Of a DNA stretch of 64,000 nucleotides, positions 2,494-58,896 are shown in pieces. Position 1 is the stretch's first letter; each line of letters begins with the position of its first letter. Position numbers and translations under genes: made by a program. The notes under the pieces were generated by a model that saw nothing but the letters and a program-made list of their open reading frames with translations, was not told the origin of the DNA and made no database searches. Origin of the DNA: Escherichia coli (GTDB lineage: Bacteria > Pseudomonadota > Gammaproteobacteria > Enterobacterales > Enterobacteriaceae); the NCBI RefSeq assembly GCF_044647545.1, contig NZ_CP172818.1. One strand, given 5' to 3'.

Positions 2494-3259
2494 TATTACT
2501 AACGAATCATTAGCACTGGCATTGATGCTGGTGGTGGTGGCAATCTTAATTAGCCATAAAGAAAAACTGGCGCTGGAGAAAGATATTCTCTGGAGCGTCG
2601 GGCGCGCGATAATCCAGCTGATTATTGTCGGCTATGTGCTGAAGTATATTTTCAGCGTGGATGATGCCAGCCTGACATTATTGATGGTGTTATTTATCTG
2701 CTTTAATGCGGCGTGGAATGCGCAAAAACGCAGTAAATATATTGCTAAAGCTTTTATCTCATCGTTTATTGCCATTACGGTCGGGGCGGGAATTACCCTG
2801 GCGGTGCTGATTCTCTCAGGGTCGATTGAATTTATCCCGATGCAGGTGATCCCTATCGCCGGGATGATAGCCGGTAACGCCATGGTAGCGGTGGGGTTGT
2901 GTTACAACAATTTAGGGCAACGGGTGATTAGCGAACAGCAACAGATTCAGGAGAAACTGAGTCTTGGCGCGACGCCGAAACAGGCTTCAGCGATATTGAT
3001 TCGCGACAGTATTCGCGCTGCTTTAATTCCGACGGTCGATTCAGCAAAAACGGTAGGCTTAGTGAGTTTACCAGGAATGATGTCCGGGCTGATATTTGCC
3101 GGGATTGATCCGGTGAAGGCGATTAAATATCAGATTATGGTGACCTTTATGCTGCTCTCAACCGCCAGCCTGTCGACCATTATTGCCTGCTATTTAACCT
3201 ATCGTAAGTTTTACAATTCGCGCCACCAGTTGGTGGTGACGCAATTGAAGAAGAAATGA
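2480..3259 (+). CDS. fetB: ABC transporter permease FetB
   Basis: Polytopic membrane ORF overlapping fetA 3-prime end; start chosen at MNSHNIT. Confidence 0.8.
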   Translation: MNSHNITNESLALALMLVVVAILISHKEKLALEKDILWSVGRAIIQLIIVGYVLKYIFSVDDASLTLLMVLFICFNAAWNAQKRSKYIAKAFISSFIAITVGAGITLAVLILSGSIEFIPMQVIPIAGMIAGNAMVAVGLCYNNLGQRVISEQQQIQEKLSLGATPKQASAILIRDSIRAALIPTVDSAKTVGLVSLPGMMSGLIFAGIDPVKAIKYQIMVTFMLLSTASLSTIIACYLTYRKFYNSRHQLVVTQLKKK

Positions 3260-3265
3260 TGCAAT

Positions 3266-3291
3266 GCCGGATGCGCAGCATCGCATCCGGC
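3266..3291. terminator. REP-like GC hairpin between convergent fetB and ybbN
   Basis: Inverted repeat GCCGGATGCG/CGCATCCGGC with 6-nt loop. Confidence 0.4.
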
Positions 3292-3321
3292 GTTGTGGTT
3301 CATGTGCCGATCAACGGAAAC

Positions 3322-4218
<897 letters not shown>

Positions 4219-4236
4219 TTAAGCGCGCGCTTCAAC

Positions 4237-5046
4237 TCACCCCTGCAATATTTTGTCCATCACGCGCCCCGGCAGCAGGCGCTTAAGCACCATTACTGCC
4301 CAGGTCACCAGCGTTACCGGATAGCGCATCTTCGGCTTCTCGCTAATAAAAGCATGGCGCACTTTGTCGACCACCGCTTCCGGTCCTAACGTAAAGCGGG
4401 CGGCGATGCCGGGATTTTCGACTGGTTTATCACTTTGCGTCTGGTTGACGTTGTCGGTGAAGCGAGTACGAATGGGACCAGGTTCGATCAGGCTGACTTT
4501 AATTCCGCTGTGGCGCAGCTCCATGCGCAGTGCGTCTGACCACGCCTCCAGCGCATATTTACTGGCCGCGTAAGCGCCACGACCCGGTGTGGAGATTAAT
4601 CCCATCACCGATGAGGTCATCACAATACGCCCTTCACCGTGCGGCAACATCGCGGGTAACAGGCGCATGGTGAGCTGGTGTGCGCCGAAAAAGTTGGCGG
4701 AAAACTGCTGTTCCATCTGCGCACGGCTGATGGTGGAAAGGGGGCCATACATGCCGAATCCGGCATTGTTAAAGATCCCATACAGACAATTATCGGTCAG
4801 GGCGATCACTTCGTCGGCTGCGCGATCAACACATTCTGGCGAATCCAGATCGATCAACACGCCGGTAAATCCCATGCTGTTCATGCGCTCAACATCATCC
4901 GCTTTCCGGCAACCTGCCAGCACATGAAAACCCTGGCGTTTTAATTCGAGCGCGCTTTCCAGGCCAATTCCACTGGAACATCCGGTAATTAAGACCGATT
5001 TTTGCATAACTTTACCTGTCAGGATCTCCGTTGCTTTATGAGTCAT
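4237..5046 (-). CDS. ybbO: Short-chain dehydrogenase/reductase YbbO
   Basis: TGCSSGIG Rossmann motif and YAASK catalytic motif. Confidence 0.85.
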   Translation of the reverse strand: MTHKATEILTGKVMQKSVLITGCSSGIGLESALELKRQGFHVLAGCRKADDVERMNSMGFTGVLIDLDSPECVDRAADEVIALTDNCLYGIFNNAGFGMYGPLSTISRAQMEQQFSANFFGAHQLTMRLLPAMLPHGEGRIVMTSSVMGLISTPGRGAYAASKYALEAWSDALRMELRHSGIKVSLIEPGPIRTRFTDNVNQTQSDKPVENPGIAARFTLGPEAVVDKVRHAFISEKPKMRYPVTLVTWAVMVLKRLLPGRVMDKILQG

Positions 5047-6316: not shown

Positions 6317-10182
<3,866 letters not shown>

Positions 10183-21976: not shown

Positions 21977-22090
21977 CTATTACCTTTAAAGCGGATGCGA
22001 TTTATATCGCATATTGACTACAAAAAAAGCCACGGAATAAACCGTGGCAAAATCCAACATAGCTAAAAATAATCAGGCGAGTGGTATGAC

Positions 22091-44853: not shown

Positions 44854-44972
44854 TTTCTTTCCTCTGTTATGCCATCACCCGCGCTCACCTGGACAGTATG
44901 CAGCGGAGACTGAAGCGCCGCAATGCAGGCTTGCCGTGTTGTGAGGTACCCGGATATTATCGTGAGGATGCG

Positions 44973-45311
44973 TCATCGCCATTGCTCCCCAAATACAAAA
45001 CCAATTTCAGCCAGTGCCTCGTCCATTTTTTCGATGAACTCCGGCACCATCTCGTCAAAACTCGCCATGTACTTTTCATCCCGCTCAACCACGACATAAT
45101 GCAGTCCTTCACGCTTCATACGCGGGTCATAGTTGGCAAAGTACCAGGCATCTTTTCGTGTCACCCACATGCTGTACTGCACCTGGGCCATGTAAGCCGA
45201 CTTTATGGCCTCGAAACCACCGAGCCGGAACTTCATGAAATCCCGGGAGGTACGAGTATTGCCGGAAGCGCGGGCTGTATCCGGATGCAGAGTCTTATCC
45301 GTGGAAATCAA
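44973..45311 (-). pseudogene. exoD: Lambda exonuclease-like C-terminal fragment
   Basis: 112-codon ORF with exo-like C-terminus, no intact N-terminus. Confidence 0.55.
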
Positions 45312-45349
45312 ACGCGCACTACTGGCTGGTTACCAACCTGTATCAGAAC

Positions 45350-45562
45350 ATGCGGGCCAATGCGTTGACTGACGCGGAATTACGGCGCAAGGCTGCCGAT
45401 GAACTGTCCTGTATGACCGCACGAATTAACCGTGGTGAGGCTATACCTGAACCAGTAAAACAACTTCCTGTCATGGGCGGTAGACCTCTAAATCGTGCAC
45501 AGGCTCTGGCGAAGATCGCAGAAATCAAAGCTAAGTTTGGGCTGAAAGGAGCAAGGGTATGA
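45350..45562 (+). pseudogene. peaD: Replication protein P-like C-terminal fragment, stop overlapping ren start
   Basis: 70-codon ORF ending in ATGA overlap with ren, the lambda P-ren junction arrangement. Confidence 0.5.
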
Positions 45563-45707
45563 CGGGCAAAGAGGCAATTATTCATTACCTGGGGACTCAT
45601 AAGAAATTCTGTGCGCAGGACGTTGCCGCGGTAACAGGCGCAACGGTAATCTGATCTTACCCAGCAATAGTGGACACGCGGCTAAGTGAGTAAACTCTCA
45701 GTCAGAG

Positions 45708-46016
45708 GTGACTCACATGACAAAAACAGTATCAACCAGTAAAAAACCCCGTAAACAGCATTCGCCTGAATTTCGCAGTGAAGCCCTGAAGCTTGCTGAA
45801 CGCATCGGTGTTACTGCCGCAGCCCGTGAACTCAGCCTGTATGAATCACAACTCTACAACTGGCGCAGTAAACAGCAAAATCAGCAGACGTCTTCTGAAC
45901 GTGAACTGGAGATGTCTACCGAGATTGCACGTCTCAAACGCCAGCTGGCAGAACGGGATGAAGAGCTGGCTATCCTCCAAAAGGCCGCGACATACTTCGC
46001 GAAGCGCCTGAAATGA
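45708..46016 (+). CDS. insE: IS3 transposase OrfA
   Basis: 102 aa [35 protein letters not shown]. Confidence 0.9.
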
Positions 46017-46879
46017 AGTATGTCTTTATTGAAAAACATCAGGCTGAGTTCAGCATCAAAGCAATGTGCCGCGTGCTCCGGGTGGCCCGCAGCGGCTGGT
46101 ATACGTGGTGTCAGCGGCGGACAAGGATAAGCACGCGTCAGCAGTTCCGCCAACACTGCGACAGCGTTGTCCTCGCGGCTTTTACCCGGTCAAAACAGCG
46201 TTACGGTGCCCCACGCCTGACGGATGAACTGCGTGCTCAGGGTTACCCCTTTAACGTAAAAACCGTGGCGGCAAGCCTGCGCCGTCAGGGACTGAGGGCA
46301 AAGGCCTCCCGGAAGTTCAGCCCGGTCAGCTACCGCGCACACGGCCTGCCTGTGTCAGAAAATCTGTTGGAGCAGGATTTTTACGCCAGTGGCCCGAACC
46401 AGAAGTGGGCAGGAGACATCACGTACTTACGTACAGATGAAGGCTGGCTGTATCTGGCAGTGGTCATTGACCTGTGGTCACGTGCCGTTATTGGCTGGTC
46501 AATGTCGCCACGCATGACGGCGCAACTGGCCTGCGATGCCCTGCAGATGGCGCTGTGGCGGCGTAAGAGGCCCCGGAACGTTATCGTTCACACGGACCGT
46601 GGAGGCCAGTACTGTTCAGCAGATTATCAGGCGCAACTGAAGCGGCATAATCTGCGTGGAAGTATGAGCGCAAAAGGTTGCTGCTACGATAATGCCTGCG
46701 TGGAAAGCTTCTTTCATTCGCTGAAAGTGGAATGTATCCATGGAGAACACTTTATCAGCCGGGAAATAATGCGGGCAACGGTGTTTAATTATATCGAATG
46801 TGATTACAATCGGTGGCGGCGGCACAGTTGGTGTGGCGGCCTCAGTCCGGAACAATTTGAAAACAAGAACCTCGCTTAG
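46013..46879 (+). CDS. insF: IS3 transposase OrfB (DDE)
   Basis: 288 aa DDE integrase-core ORF in -1 frame relative to orfA. Confidence 0.9.
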
Positions 46880-47189
46880 GCCTGTGTCCATATTACGTGG
46901 GTAGGATCAACCAGCATAAATCAGGCTGCGGCTAAAATGGCACGGGCAGGTCTTCTGGCTATCGAAGGTAAGGTCTGGCGAACGGTGTATTACCGGTTTG
47001 CTACCAGAGAAGAACGGGAAGGAAAGGTGAGCACGAATCTGATTTTTAAGGAGTGTCGCCAGAGTGCCGCGATGAAACGGGTATTGAGGGTATATAAAAG
47101 AACATCAATGGGTACACAATGATGAAACAGGTGAGTTGAGTTCAAACTGTAGTACAATTCTCTCCAGTTTGAACAGGAAAGAATATTCT

Positions 47190-49762: not shown

Positions 49763-50312
49763 ATGAAAACACTTATCGTTTCAACTGTATTGGCATTCAT
49801 AACATTTTCTGCGCAGGCTGCAGCATTTCAGGTCACTAGTAATGAAATAAAAACAGGAGAGCAACTTACAACGTCTCATGTCTTTCTCGATTTGGGTGTG
49901 AAGGTGGTAATACATCGCCCTCATTAACCTGGTCTGGTGTTCCTGAAGGTACCAAAAGCTTTGCCGTAACTGTATATGATCCAGATGCACCTACAGGCAG
50001 TGGTTGGTGGCATTGGACTGTTGTTAATATTCCAGCAACAGTAACATATTTTCCGTTGATGCAGGGAGACGTGATGGAACAAAACTGCCGACTGGTGCTG
50101 TTCAAGGCCGAAATGATTTTGGCTATGCTGGGTTTGGTGGCGCATGTCCTCCTAAAGGAGATAAACCACATCATTACCAGTTTAAAGTATGGGCTCTAAA
50201 AACTGAAAAGATTCCTGTAGATTCTAACTCCAGCGGAGCGTTAGTTGGTTATATGCTTAATGCTAATAAAATCGCAACCGCTGAGATAACACCAGTTTAT
50301 GAGATAAAGTAG
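49763..50312 (+). pseudogene. ybcL: PEBP/RKIP-family periplasmic protein gene disrupted by two single-base frameshifts
   Basis: Signal peptide frame stops after 54 codons; [13 protein letters not shown] segment in -1 frame; [10 protein letters not shown] segment in a further -1 frame; total 550 bp. Confidence 0.75.
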
Positions 50313-50321
50313 GGTGAGAGT

Positions 50322-51119: not shown

Positions 51120-51333
51120 AAGTGTTTTAAGAAGGAGCAATTCTATCGATTTTGATTTGCGATAATCAACTCGCCATAATCATGTCATCGGAGCCTGAAC
51201 AACTCCGGTGACTTCTGCGCTAAACGGGGACGTTTATGCGCACACACAATCCAAACTCTCTTCTCCCTCCACAGATGCAGAAATGCACCTGCGATATATT
51301 GTATCCAGCGTTTGACCTCTGCGGAGGTGAAGC

Positions 51334-51789
51334 GTGAATCTCCCACAAGATGGCATCAAATTACATCGCGGTAACTTCACCGCTATCGGTCGGCAGATCC
51401 AGCCTTATCTGGAGGAGGGCAAATGCTTTCGCATGGTGCTTAAACCGTGGCGTGAGAAACGCAGTCTTTCCCAGAATGCACTCAGCCACATGTGGTACAG
51501 CGAAATCAGTGAATACCTCATCAGCAGGGGTAAAACGTTCGCTACTCCAGCTTGGGTAAAAGATGCTCTCAAACACACATATCTCGGTTATGAAACCAAA
51601 GACCTGGTTGATGTCGTAACCGGTGATATCACCACTATCCAGTCGTTACGCCATACCTCCGATCTTGATACCGGAGAGATGTATGTCTTCCTGTGTAAGG
51701 TTGAAGCCTGGGCGGTGAATATTGGCTGCCACCTGACTATTCCGCAGAGCTGCGAGTTCCAGCTGCTCCGCGACAAGCAGGAGGCGTAA
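51334..51789 (+). CDS. ybcN: Prophage protein YbcN
   Basis: 151 aa ORF at head of nin-like gene block. Confidence 0.75.
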
Positions 51790-51959
51790 TGGCTACACCG
51801 CTTATTCGTGTCATGAACGGACACATCTACAGAGTACCAGATCGTCGTAAGCGTAAACCGGAGCTGAAGCCTTCCGAAATACCAACACTGCTCGGATATA
51901 CCGCCAGCCTGGTTGATAAAAAATGGTTGCGACTGGCAGCAAGGAGGAATCATGGCTGA
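51789..51959 (+). CDS. ninE: NinE-like protein
   Basis: 56 aa [21 protein letters not shown]..., start overlaps ybcN stop. Confidence 0.7.
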   Translation: MATPLIRVMNGHIYRVPDRRKRKPELKPSEIPTLLGYTASLVDKKWLRLAARRNHG

Positions 51960-52242
51960 TTTGAGAAAAGCAGCGCGTAGTCGGGAATGCCAGGTAAGAA
52001 TCCCTGGCGTATGTAATGGCAACCCTGAAACGTCTGTACTGGCACATATCCGGCTGACTGGATTGTGCGGCACCGGTACCAAACCGCCAGACCTGATTGC
52101 CACCATTGCATGTTCTGCCTGCCACGACGAAATCGACCGCCGCACACATTTTGTCGATGCTGCATATGCAAAAGAATGCGCGCTGGAAGGTATGGCGAGA
52201 ACACAGGTTATCTGGCTGAAAGAGGGGGTTATTAAGGCGTGA
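51952..52242 (+). CDS. ybcO: Prophage protein YbcO
   Basis: 96 aa Cys-rich ORF overlapping ninE end. Confidence 0.75.
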
Positions 52243-52601
52243 ATACCTACAGCATCACATTACCCTGGCCTCCGAGCAATAATCGCTATTACCGCCATAA
52301 TCGCGGGCGCACGCACGTCAGCGCAGAGGGGCAGGCATACCGCGATAACGTCGCCCGAATCATTAAAAACGCAATGCTGGATATCGGCCTGGCTATGCCT
52401 GTGAAAATCCGCATTGAGTGCCACATGCCGGATCGCCGTCGCCGTGACCTGGATAATCTGCAAAAAGCCGCTTTTGACGCACTCACTAAAGCAGGTTTCT
52501 GGCTGGATGATGCTCAGGTCGTTGATTACCGCGTTGTGAAGATGCCTGTTACCAAAGGTGGGAGGCTGGAACTGACCATCACCGAAATGGGGAATGAATG
52601 A
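52239..52601 (+). CDS. rusA: Holliday junction resolvase RusA
   Basis: 120 aa ORF with RusA catalytic Asp cluster. Confidence 0.9.
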
Positions 52602-52738
52602 TGTTTGAGTTTTATATGGCAGAACGTCTTCGCCACCGCTGGGGGCGTCTGCGCTTATATCGTTTCCCCGGTTCTGTTTTGACCGATTACCGAATACTGA
52701 AGAATTACGCCAAAACCCTGACAGGAGCAGGAGTATGA
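52598..52738 (+). CDS. ylcG: Small prophage protein YlcG
   Basis: 46 aa ORF with start overlapping rusA stop. Confidence 0.55.
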
Positions 52739-52823
52739 AGTCAGAGATAACAATCAACTAATACTGTTTCGTTGATTTTTGCTTGTAATTGGCGTTCTGG
52801 TCTGATTTTTGTGGAGTAAGTTG

Positions 52824-53207
52824 ATGCGTGATATTCAGATGGTTCTTGAGCGTTGGGGAGCGTGGGCGGCTAATAATCATGAAGATGTGACCTGGTCGTC
52901 CATTGCCGCCGGTTTTAAGGGATTAATTACTTCAAAAGTAAAATCTCGCCCACAATGTTGTGACGATGACGCGATGATCATTTGCGGGTGCATGGCCCGT
53001 CTGAAAAAGAACAACAGCGATTTGCATGATTTATTGGTGGACTATTATGTCGGCGGCATGACTTTTATGGCGCTTGCACGTAAGCATGGGCGATCTGATT
53101 GTTGGGTTGGCAGGATGCTTCAGAAAGCTGAGGGCGTAGTGGAGGGTATGCTGATGGTGTTGGATCTCCGATTGGAGATGGATGTCGTTGTTAATAACTC
53201 TAATTAA
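52824..53207 (+). CDS. quuD: Lambda Q-like late antiterminator
   Basis: 127 aa from [14 protein letters not shown] with Cys-rich zinc motif. Confidence 0.85.
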
Positions 53208-53458
53208 TATGCCAATTGTTTACTAAAAATTATTAAAAATGGGGCGTTGAGACGCCCCCAAAAATAAAGGGTAATATATAACAGAAGGTTTATATAGTTA
53301 GAAGCAAGGTTGTGCTTCTAAAGGAAGTGGCTTGAGGGAGCCACTTATATGTTGGGGAGGCAACGCCTCCCGCAACATATCTTTTTCGTAATCAGATTAG
53401 AACTGGTAAACCAGACCTACAGCAACGATGTCATCAGTGCTTACACCGAGTGCTTTAG

Positions 53459-54653
<1,195 letters not shown>

Positions 54654-56110
54654 TTAGTGAAGTCATTTTTGTCAAGCAGGTTGATTTTGTAATCAACGAA
54701 AGTAGACATATTTTTGTTGAAGTAATAGGTTGCACCTACATCAACATATTTGACTAAGTCCTGATCGCCCCATACTCCAAGATCCTTACCTTTAGATTGC
54801 AGGTAAGCAACGGACGGACGCAGACCGAAATCGAACTGATATTGTGCAACAGCTTCGAAGTTTTGGGCTTTATTAGCAACGAAGTGATCAGCAAATACAG
54901 TCATATTCTGGGTTTCAGAATAGGTAGTGGCCAGGTAAATGTTGTTAGCGTCATATTTCAGACCTGCGGCCCAAACTTCTGCATTTTTACCGGAAGCAAA
55001 TACTTCAGGAAGAACTTTCCCTGCATTAACTTGAGTGTCGGTACGATCAGATTTCGCATAAGTTGCACCGATACCGAATCCTTCGTATTCATAGGTAGCA
55101 GAGAAACCGAAGCCATCACCGTTACCTTCAGTGTAGTTATCGAAATCGCTACGATCGTTTTTGCCTTGGTACTGAATCGCAAAATCAAGACCATCAACCA
55201 GGCCAAGAAATCATAGTTACGGTAGGTTGCAACACCGTTGGTACGACCATTCATGAAGTTGTCAGCGGAAGCCCAGGAATCGCCACCCCATTCAACTAAC
55301 ATATCGGTATAAGCTGCGGCATCATAAGCAACACCGTAGTTACGGCCATAGTCAAATGACCACTCGTTATATTTCAAACCGGCGAAGGTTAAACGGGTTT
55401 TTTCCTGGTTTTCACCTTCGGGCTTGCTGGCGTCGAGGTTGTATTCAAACTGACCAAAACCAGTCAGTTCGCTGGTGATTTGGGTTTCACCTTTGAAGCC
55501 AAGACGGGCATAAGTAGTATCACCATCATCTGCATCATTAGAGGAGAAGTAGTGCTTAGCATTAACTTTCCCGTACAGATCCAGCTTGTTACTGTCTTTA
55601 TTATAAATTTCAGCTGCCTGAGCAGACATCGCCATTAGTACTGATGCAGCTACAGCAGAAATTGCCACTGTTAATTTTTTCATCGTGAGCCCTTTTTTTG
55701 AACTATTATTAAAAAATGATGTCACTGCGCGATAAATATTCATCTAATCAATGTGATTATTTCAAGATGTAAGTTTTGGTTTCTCGTTTGATTTGTGAAG
55801 TAGATCTCTATTTTTATCTGAACTTTTTTCTATCGAATCCTATTCATGGCTCTTGGCTGAATAAAAATAAATCTATTAGCCAATTTATATTAACGGCTGT
55901 TATTTATAAGTGCTCTATAATTTGAAGGTTCAATTTAAACCGGCTAAAAATAACACTGGAAATTATTTTTTGGTTATTTGTTGAGATTTGCTTATGTATT
56001 TGTAGTGGTGTTTTCAATACTCGGTAGCATTCTCTCAAATATCATTTAGTGGTTTACGTACGTAAAAAATTGGTTATGCTGTTAAGAGTGGTTACTTCGT
56101 CACACAGCTT

Positions 56111-56140
56111 AAACCCGCCGTCGAGCGGGTTTTTCCATTT
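56111..56140 (+). terminator. tR-prime-like terminator upstream of holin gene
   Basis: AAACCCGC-CGTCGA-GCGGGTTT followed by T run. Confidence 0.5.
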
Positions 56141-56258
56141 TTTGAGTCTCGATATTAGCTGATAACCCAATACCTGAGTTATTCACTGACTCCGAGTCTG
56201 TTACGTTTCGTAGTATTCCCTCAATTTACACCCATCCGTTATTTGCGGAGGTGAGGCT

Positions 56259-56971: not shown

Positions 56972-57342
56972 GCAGAGTCACCGCGATTATCTCCGCTCTG
57001 GTTATCTGCATCATCGTCTGCCTGTCATGGGCTGTTAATCATTACCGTGATAACGCCATCGCCTACAAAGAACAGCGCGATAAAAAAGTCAGTGAGCTGA
57101 AGCAGGCGACCGCCACCATTACTGACATGCAGCAGCGCCAGCGTGATGCTGATGCACTCGATGCTAAATACACGAAGGAGTTAGCTGATGCGAAAGCTGA
57201 AAATGATGCTCTTCGGCGCAAGCTTGATAATGGTGGTCGGGTGCTCGTCAAAGGAAAATGCCCTGTGCCATCCTCAGCCGAAACCTCCAGCGCCTCCGGC
57301 ATGGGCAATGATGCCACCGTCGAACTCAAAGACCGAGAATAA
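56968..57342 (+). CDS. rzpD: Rz-like spanin (i-spanin), apparently truncated by frameshift
   Basis: [32 protein letters not shown]-terminus as in lambda Rz; frame stops after 124 codons. Confidence 0.7.
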
Positions 57343-57445
57343 AAACTATCCAGTTAGCGACGAATATCTGGACCCAATTATCGCGACCAAAACAGCACTG
57401 AGAACGCTTCAGGAATTCATCAGGACGCAATGTCCTTCGAGATAG
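57188..57445 (+). CDS. rzoD: Rz1-like o-spanin lipoprotein frame with abnormal 3-prime extension past the Rz stop
   Basis: Embedded +1 frame with lipobox MVVGC and Pro-rich segment; tail resembles Rz C-terminus. Confidence 0.5.
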
Positions 57446-57601
57446 CGATTATTTTACTCATCATTCCCTTCACATCTGGCTCTGTAGACAGTTCACTTCT
57501 GAAATCCAATAAACATCTCATTCTGATGCTTGATATTGAGCATTTTGCGCGCGGTAAGGGGCTGCGTTGAGATAAGAACCAGTAAAAATAAACCAGGATT
57601 T

Positions 57602-57663
57602 AGCCTCGCATTCGCGGGGCTTTTTATTGCCATTACAAAAGCCACTTCCTACAGAGTGGCTTT
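57602..57663. terminator. Back-to-back hairpins (bidirectional terminator) after lysis cassette
   Basis: GCCTCGC..GCGGGGCTTTTT and AAAAGCCACT-8 nt-AGTGGCTTT. Confidence 0.45.
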
Positions 57664-57919
57664 GATAATGGTTTATACCCTACACGGGATAACTTAACTG
57701 ATATCCCTTTTAAAGGATAAAGGTATTCAAGCCTGACACATCATGCGCTGTATCGTCGCCGTATTCCCGTATTAACAGAGACCGTAGCCCGACGGGGAAC
57801 TCCTTCTGCGCGAGTGTGCGGGAATAATCAAAAACGATGCACACCGGGGTTACCGGGTACACATATTTCATCATGCCAGCGAGTCCGGTTCTGGCACGGA
57901 AGAAACCGGACGTTATGAT

Positions 57920-58330
57920 TTAGTGCGGAAATATTTGTGTAGTGTTCTGAATGTTCTCAGTAAAGAGTAATGAATTATCAAAGGTATAGTAATACCTTTT
58001 GTTTTCGTGGATATTTGTAATCCATCTGAAAACCCCTGCTGTAGCAAGATTTTTCCTGTATTCGTAAAATGATAACTCTCCTGATTTGAATCCTTTTAAG
58101 GTGGCTTCTATAAGGCATTTATTTTTTGAAAATCTTACATTTACAACCTTACCCTGTCCTTTTATTAAAACCGTATTATCGTTTTCAAGAACAAGATGAA
58201 TATTCTCTGTAGCTAAATAGTAAATGTAATGTGAGACATTGTGACGTTTTAGTTCAGAATAAAACCAGTGATAGTTTAAATTATTTCGCACTTTATCGAA
58301 TATTTGTTTAAAAATGGCAACCTGAGCCAT
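57920..58330 (-). CDS. ybcV: DUF1398-family prophage protein
   Basis: [21 protein letters not shown]... Confidence 0.75.
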
Positions 58331-58662
58331 TGTGGTACCTTCCATGTGATATGAGGGGCGTAGTCTGCACGATTATCTAAATTGCTTCAATCTGGTCTGA
58401 TTTTTGAGAATTTAAATAAGCAGATTAGAAGGGAAACGCTGAAATTCATGTTGTTTTCAATAAACAAAGAATGGACGAAAAATCATAAAGACAATACTGC
58501 CAGGACAGGTTAAAAACTATCTTAATACACATTCGATGGTTAGATGTTTAATCATGTATAGAACATCATACCTAAAATACTAAAAGCAAAAGAAACGAAG
58601 GAATCCTCTATAATTAATCTATCAAAGAAGAGAATACGTATCTGACTAAGAGACTAATCAAC

Positions 58663-58896
58663 TCAGCAATCCTCGTATTTAGGGAATACAATACGTCCAG
58701 TGTCACTCTTTTCTTTGTTTGCTTCAGGAGAAACTCTTTTTTCTGAGCACAGTCTCCGGCGGCAGGCTTCAATGACCCAGGCTGAGAAATTCCCGGACCC
58801 TTTTTGATCAAGAGCGATGTTAATTTGTTCAATCATTTGGTTAGGAAAGCGGATGTTGCGGATTGTTGTTCTGCGGGTTCTGTTCTTCGTTGACAT
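58663..58896 (-). CDS. ylcI: DUF3950-family small protein
   Basis: ORF MSTKNRTRRTTIRNIRFPNQMIEQINIALDQKGSGNFSAWVIEACRRR. Confidence 0.65.
   Translation of the reverse strand: MSTKNRTRRTTIRNIRFPNQMIEQINIALDQKGSGNFSAWVIEACRRRLCSEKRVSPEANKEKSDTGRIVFPKYEDC

Follow-up and report, generated by a model that had tools for sequence, protein, structure and literature searches.

A yedS-type tract and a one-base frameshift in the IS5-interrupted porin gene nmpC of a DLP12 prophage in Escherichia coli

The DLP12 cryptic prophage and its porin gene nmpC lie in the stretch of Escherichia coli DNA considered here, a window of 64,000 nucleotides from contig NZ_CP172818.1 (assembly GCF_044647545.1). The prophage was recognized at argU through alignment to K-12 and through its genes, namely rusA, ylcG, Q, IS5, the porin gene, essD, rrrD and rzpD, and the porin gene sits between quuD and essD, as it does in K-12. 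The gene is read from the minus strand and is split by an IS5 element of 1195 bp (53459-54653, minus strand), which occupies the same nucleotide and the same orientation as the IS5 in K-12 nmpC and is bordered by the target duplication CTAA at 54654-54657 and 53455-53458. The 5' part of the pseudogene (54654-55683, minus strand) begins at the ATG, ends where IS5 is joined, and is 100% identical to K-12 nmpC outside one internal tract. Beyond the element there is a detached 3' remnant (53397-53458, minus strand), consisting of the last 19 codons, KALGVSTDDIVAVGLVYQF, followed by the stop. The terminal VGLVYQF is found in this remnant only, cut off from the barrel by IS5, and no C-terminal ...YQF with its terminal Phe is contiguous with the barrel.

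The closest known relative of this structure is the DLP12 nmpC::IS5 of K-12 itself, with which it has the insertion site, the orientation, the CTAA duplication and flanks of 100% identity in common. Over 53185-55175 and again over 55477-56233 there is not one difference from K-12, whereas about a hundred differences are packed within 55176-55476, and the porin fragment as a whole shows only 90.7% DNA identity to K-12 nmpC. The K-12 gene, in contrast, carries neither a frameshift nor a tract of foreign porin sequence. The nmpC-IS5 junction was found in 281 of 5,426 complete E. coli genomes, and the full-length junction matches, among those listed, are laboratory strains of K-12 type. NmpC is expressed in NCM3722, a K-12 strain without this IS5 (PMC3045373). 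The backbone of the window is not that of K-12, to which it shows 96.5-98% identity; it differs from strain MS6198 by a single SNP and one 14-nt indel over 32.9 kb, and ECONIH1 is likewise near-identical. The indel, one of the two differences in those 32.9 kb, is a deletion at window position 22013 (CTTTTTTTACCTGA) in the intergenic region of glxK and allE. Contamination with K-12 DNA was considered and rejected, since many other segments of the prophage diverge from K-12 and since the prophage agrees with MS6198 wherever these two have sequence in common.

As present, the porin reading frame opens with an ATG at 55683, begins MKKLTVAIS with a porin signal peptide at its N-terminus, and ends at a stop at 54958-54960, giving a product of 241 aa (54958-55683, minus strand). 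This product comprises 159 porin residues, in frame up to F159, and then 82 out-of-frame codons. The frame is lost at codon 160 (55205-55206, minus strand), where frame reading and alignment to nmpC and yedS place TT in the position of TTT: the expected TTC TTT GGC reads TTC TTG GC., and K-12 nmpC, an intact nmpC and yedS all have TTC TTT GG(T/C) at this site. The adjacent frame is open without a stop through ...DFTKE to the end of IS5, and after the shift it reads as K-12-identical NmpC sequence up to the element. The original prediction, made from the letters of the window, had proposed a one-base frameshift between 55195 and 55215, in addition to IS5, with non-porin sequence after the shift and porin sequence in the +1 frame up to the IS5 junction; the lesion is present within that interval, both frames read in this manner, and the IS5 with its CTAA duplication is a separate event. 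The identity of the lost base needs correction, as it was taken for the C of TTCTTCGGC, and the comparison with K-12 nmpC, the intact nmpC and yedS identifies it as a T from a run of three. The frameshift is a plain reading of the sequence, and chance plays no part in it.

The family assignment of the fragment follows the same pattern. On the 241-aa product the Pfam profile Porin_1 is matched over positions 1-134 of 337 only, and the full-length 16-strand porin profile of OmpC, OmpF, PhoE and NmpC does not appear in one frame. Once the T is restored and IS5 is removed, Porin_1 (PF00267) is matched over positions 1-337 with E=1.9e-142. The nmpC fragment is a porin by descent and not an intact member of Porin_1.

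The porin sequence that precedes the shift is good porin sequence, as had been described, but it is not NmpC throughout. In a three-way alignment of the fragment with nmpC and yedS, the diagnostic sites fall along the gene in the order of 89 nmpC markers upstream, 107 yedS markers, and 267 nmpC markers downstream. The yedS-derived tract covers at minimum 55176-55475 (minus strand), where 107 of 107 markers are specific to yedS, and at maximum 55157-55494 when the identity blocks at its two junctions are included; its length is accordingly 300-338 bp, and it corresponds to nucleotides 209-508 of the gene, or residues ~70-170. The coding region therefore is not nmpC throughout, as it is in the K-12-type nmpC::IS5, being of yedS type over these nucleotides. 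Against the yedS of MS6198 and of E. coli W, the tract has 0 substitutions and 4 gap columns. The encoded segment, including DFAIQ and the region of the constriction loop, is matched by YedS alone among the porins aligned.

The switch points can be read directly as well. Each lies inside a 19-nt word that is identical in the two genes, AAAGGTGAAACCCAAATCA and TCAGTACCAAGGCAAAAAC, and these are the second and third longest exact words common to nmpC and yedS. The longest shared exact word is 19-20 nt, and across the tract about one site in three differs between the two paralogues (~35%). Thus, a run of donor sites is flanked on both sides by recipient sites, with both switch points placed within shared identity, and this arrangement is the signature of what would be an ectopic (non-allelic) gene conversion from yedS to nmpC. 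The yedS locus is chromosomal, between drpB and hchA, and falls outside the window; the allele that matches the tract occurs in ECONIH1 and many others besides W and MS6198, including relatives whose backbone is near-identical to the window. The yedS of K-12 was considered as a donor and rejected, given that its allele differs from the tract throughout. Because the yedS of the lineage of the window matches the tract and that of K-12 does not, the event probably took place in this lineage, in a genome that carried nmpC::IS5.

A second lesion lies within the same tract. Alignment to the donor yedS shows TTAGGA replaced by TGG at 55360-55362 (minus strand), a net loss of three nucleotides that turns Leu-Gly into Trp. 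This change removes the conserved Gly of the porin motif G-S-[FI]-D-Y-G-R-N-Y-G, a residue kept in all seven of the other porins aligned and in the OmpC structure 2xe2, and the motif is thus not intact in this gene. It also abolishes the only GATC of the tract, the deleted A being its adenine. Relative to its donor the tract thus has no substitutions and two deletion events, the lost T and TTAGGA>TGG. The frameshift had been regarded as the second lesion of the gene beside IS5; it is indeed there, but the count was one short, and the nmpC of the window carries three disabling changes, namely IS5, the frameshift and the codon-level deletion.

Other known systems place this gene in context. The yedS gene of the W and MS6198 type is identical to the 300-bp tract save for the two deletions; the resemblance to YedS is confined to an internal third, while the signal peptide, the N-terminus and the C-terminal two thirds are those of NmpC, and the locus is that of the prophage. 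The yedS gene is a known accessory porin gene and a pseudogene in K-12; its activity has been reported from an isolate resistant to carbapenems (Warner et al. 2013, cited in PMC4048246). Intact NmpC and Lc, the latter of the phage PA-2 type, have 88% identity to the repaired protein and Salmonella OmpD has ~70%, all with the full-length Porin_1 architecture; they differ from the gene described here in being intact, with 365-385 aa, and in having no YedS-type segment. In a second laboratory lineage, the derivatives of E. coli B (T7 Express), nmpC has been cut independently by an insertion sequence, which is an IS1 at another site (2579-4438 of the T7 Express locus compared), and no yedS tract was seen in the nmpC of T7 Express. 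Since the B lineage has this IS1 knockout of the same gene, repeated inactivation of nmpC is ordinary.

Hybrid porin genes are also familiar from the laboratory, where ompF-ompC and phoE hybrids were obtained in the 1980s through homologous recombination in vivo, at places where the paralogues have short blocks of identity in common. Those hybrids were selected, in-frame and functional crossovers between adjacent or plasmid-borne genes, whereas the case described here is a double-ended patch, with deletions, in an unselected pseudogene.

The chimera was searched for widely. It was not found in the 5,426 complete E. coli genomes, in which no full-length match to the porin fragment exceeded 91.2%. 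The exact 241-aa product occurs once in the protein collection. An intact version of the chimera was sought among 5.8 billion protein clusters with the repaired chimeric protein; no relative exceeded 88%, and the best ones, at that value, were ordinary NmpC and Lc. The 39-mer spanning the chimeric 5' junction, CTTGGCTTCAAAGGTGAAACCCAAATCACCAGCGAACTG, has no match in metagenome or species-representative contigs, and no such chimera was found in the literature on nmpC with gene conversion and on yedS.

The best explanation of these observations, and one that we consider probable, is the conversion of an already dead nmpC::IS5 by yedS, with two deletions arising in the tract. The nmpC gene of DLP12 would first have been inactivated by the K-12-type IS5 insertion, after which an internal stretch of 300-338 bp would have been replaced by its counterpart from yedS, the paralogue on the chromosome, in a non-allelic conversion resolved within the two 19-nt blocks of perfect identity. 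The frameshift, the mosaic, its junctions and the site of IS5 can be read directly from the sequence. The direction and the timing of this event, together with the deletions being real mutations, are what we infer: the conversion would have occurred after the insertion, or at least in the allele that bears it, and the deletions would have arisen during or shortly after it in a gene free of selection, slippage or error-prone repair synthesis being examples of how. The lost T would then shift the frame at codon 160, with the stop 82 codons further on. Two or three indel events and zero substitutions in 300 bp are odd for ordinary neutral decay, and because several indels without substitutions are unlike slow decay, the deletions are likely to have come with the conversion or soon after it. 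Few RecA-type exchanges would be expected at a divergence of about one third, where the anchors are no longer than 19 nt.

Deletions in a sequence known from one assembly bring the assembly itself into question, and a first alternative holds that the tract is real and that the missing T, and perhaps TTAGGA>TGG too, is a consensus error in the deposited sequence. Such an error could have arisen, for example, if long-read errors at Dam and Dcm motifs were left uncorrected where short reads are ambiguous, that is, in the 0.3-kb duplicate of yedS. The deleted base belongs to a run of T with a CCTGG 3 nt away, TTAGGA>TGG takes out the adenine of a GATC, and lesions at or near Dam/Dcm motifs form a pattern that long-read consensus errors can also produce; additionally, both lesions fall in the one segment of the gene that has a second copy in the genome. 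However, the ~38 kb of the window that is identical to MS6198 or K-12 holds no single-base indels, and this comparison takes in the multi-copy IS5, which is longer and more repeated, together with 138 GATC and 87 CCWGG sites. Since this much sequence matches relatives free of single-base indels, a generic assembly error is unlikely. A long-read artefact at methylation motifs was considered specifically and was not confirmed, the 225 other Dam/Dcm sites in matched sequence being clean. Similar indels do not recur elsewhere in the same assembly; the indels of the window relative to K-12 are almost all intergenic, with none in essential genes such as cysS, folD, lpxH and purEK. Uniquely anchored short reads could also reach the lost T, which is only ~50 nt away from the unique 3' flank. 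Overall, a consensus error appears unlikely, though some caution is in order.

The deletions might instead be older than the conversion. If the lesions had pre-existed in the strain's own yedS, a dead donor copied faithfully into nmpC would account for several indels without substitutions in the tract, and yedS is a pseudogene in some lineages, such as K-12, whose annotation gives the gene a frameshift and an internal stop. Against this, no complete E. coli genome holds a yedS of the tract allele with either deletion, nor any match to the tract at >=99%. When the products of an MS6198-type yedS with the lesions were predicted, none occurred among 15 billion proteins, whereas intact YedS is present on at least 1000 contigs, and the 31-mer spanning the frameshift has no match in metagenome or species-representative contigs. 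We regard the dead donor as doubtful on these grounds.

A bolder reading, which we hold to be improbable, is that a chromosomal porin gene and a prophage pseudogene ~1.5 Mb apart swapped a 0.3-kb constriction-loop segment in an event that was itself mutagenic. The exchange would then have relied on anchors of 19 nt despite ~35% divergence, and of the deletions left by it one would be at a GATC and another next to a CCWGG. Should patches also move in the opposite direction, the porins of cryptic prophages would represent a reservoir from which chromosomal porins, which serve as phage receptors and as entry routes for antibiotics, could be remodelled in the parts that line the pore or are exposed at the surface.

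That the whole patch is a chimera of assembly or polishing, the true gene being a plain K-12-type nmpC::IS5, would fit a hybrid unique to one assembly, but it is very improbable, as shared words of at most 19-20 nt and differences at about one third of the sites are not what a graph collapse or a mis-mapping swap is expected to act upon, the tract has sharp ends that were guided by homology, and elsewhere the window is free of errors relative to its relatives.

For the cell, the consequences of the frameshift are small. Its phenotypic effect is negligible because nmpC was already dead, and biologically it is an ordinary further lesion in a pseudogene. In K-12 the loss of IS5 restores NmpC expression; in the window no porin would be restored in this way, and blocking such reactivation is all that the frameshift does. 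In annotation, the gene should be entered as an nmpC/yedS chimera, a pseudogene with three kinds of damage. Of more interest than the frameshift is the yedS patch, although it reflects one event only, unselected, in a gene that was already dead, and is known from one assembly. It represents a clean natural case of patch-wise exchange between diverged porin paralogues, with a modest bearing on porin diversity.

The rest of the prophage is a mosaic in its own right. A breakpoint lies at 53184/53185, near the 3' end of the antiterminator gene Q: upstream of it, over 51151-53184, the sequence is 100% of the MS6198 type and diverged from K-12, and from 53185 on through nmpC::IS5 it is 100% of the K-12 type, the cargo of MS6198 at this place being lipocalin, YbgA and HTH genes. 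At window 44947-46908 the exo'/P' deletion junction and the IS3 insertion are as in the DLP12 of K-12. The remnants that flank the exo'/P' junction are 100% identical to an undeleted, full-length lambdoid prophage of MS6198, and window 45001-46000 has 32 differences from K-12, although the structural scars of K-12 are shared by this near-clone of MS6198. Another decayed DLP12 gene is the ybcL homologue at window 49763-50320, which is broken: compared with K-12 it has lost 1 nt at 49883 and, separately, 1 nt at 50053, and only a 54-aa N-terminal reading frame is left. After rzpD, at window 57212-58734 (around bor/iss and ybcV), alignment to K-12 is at 83-87% or absent, and the lysis-proximal cargo therefore differs from that of K-12. 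Further away, at window 8701-8990, about 290 bp stand in place of ~7.2 kb of K-12 DNA that holds rhsD, ybbC and their neighbours (K-12 522804-530048).
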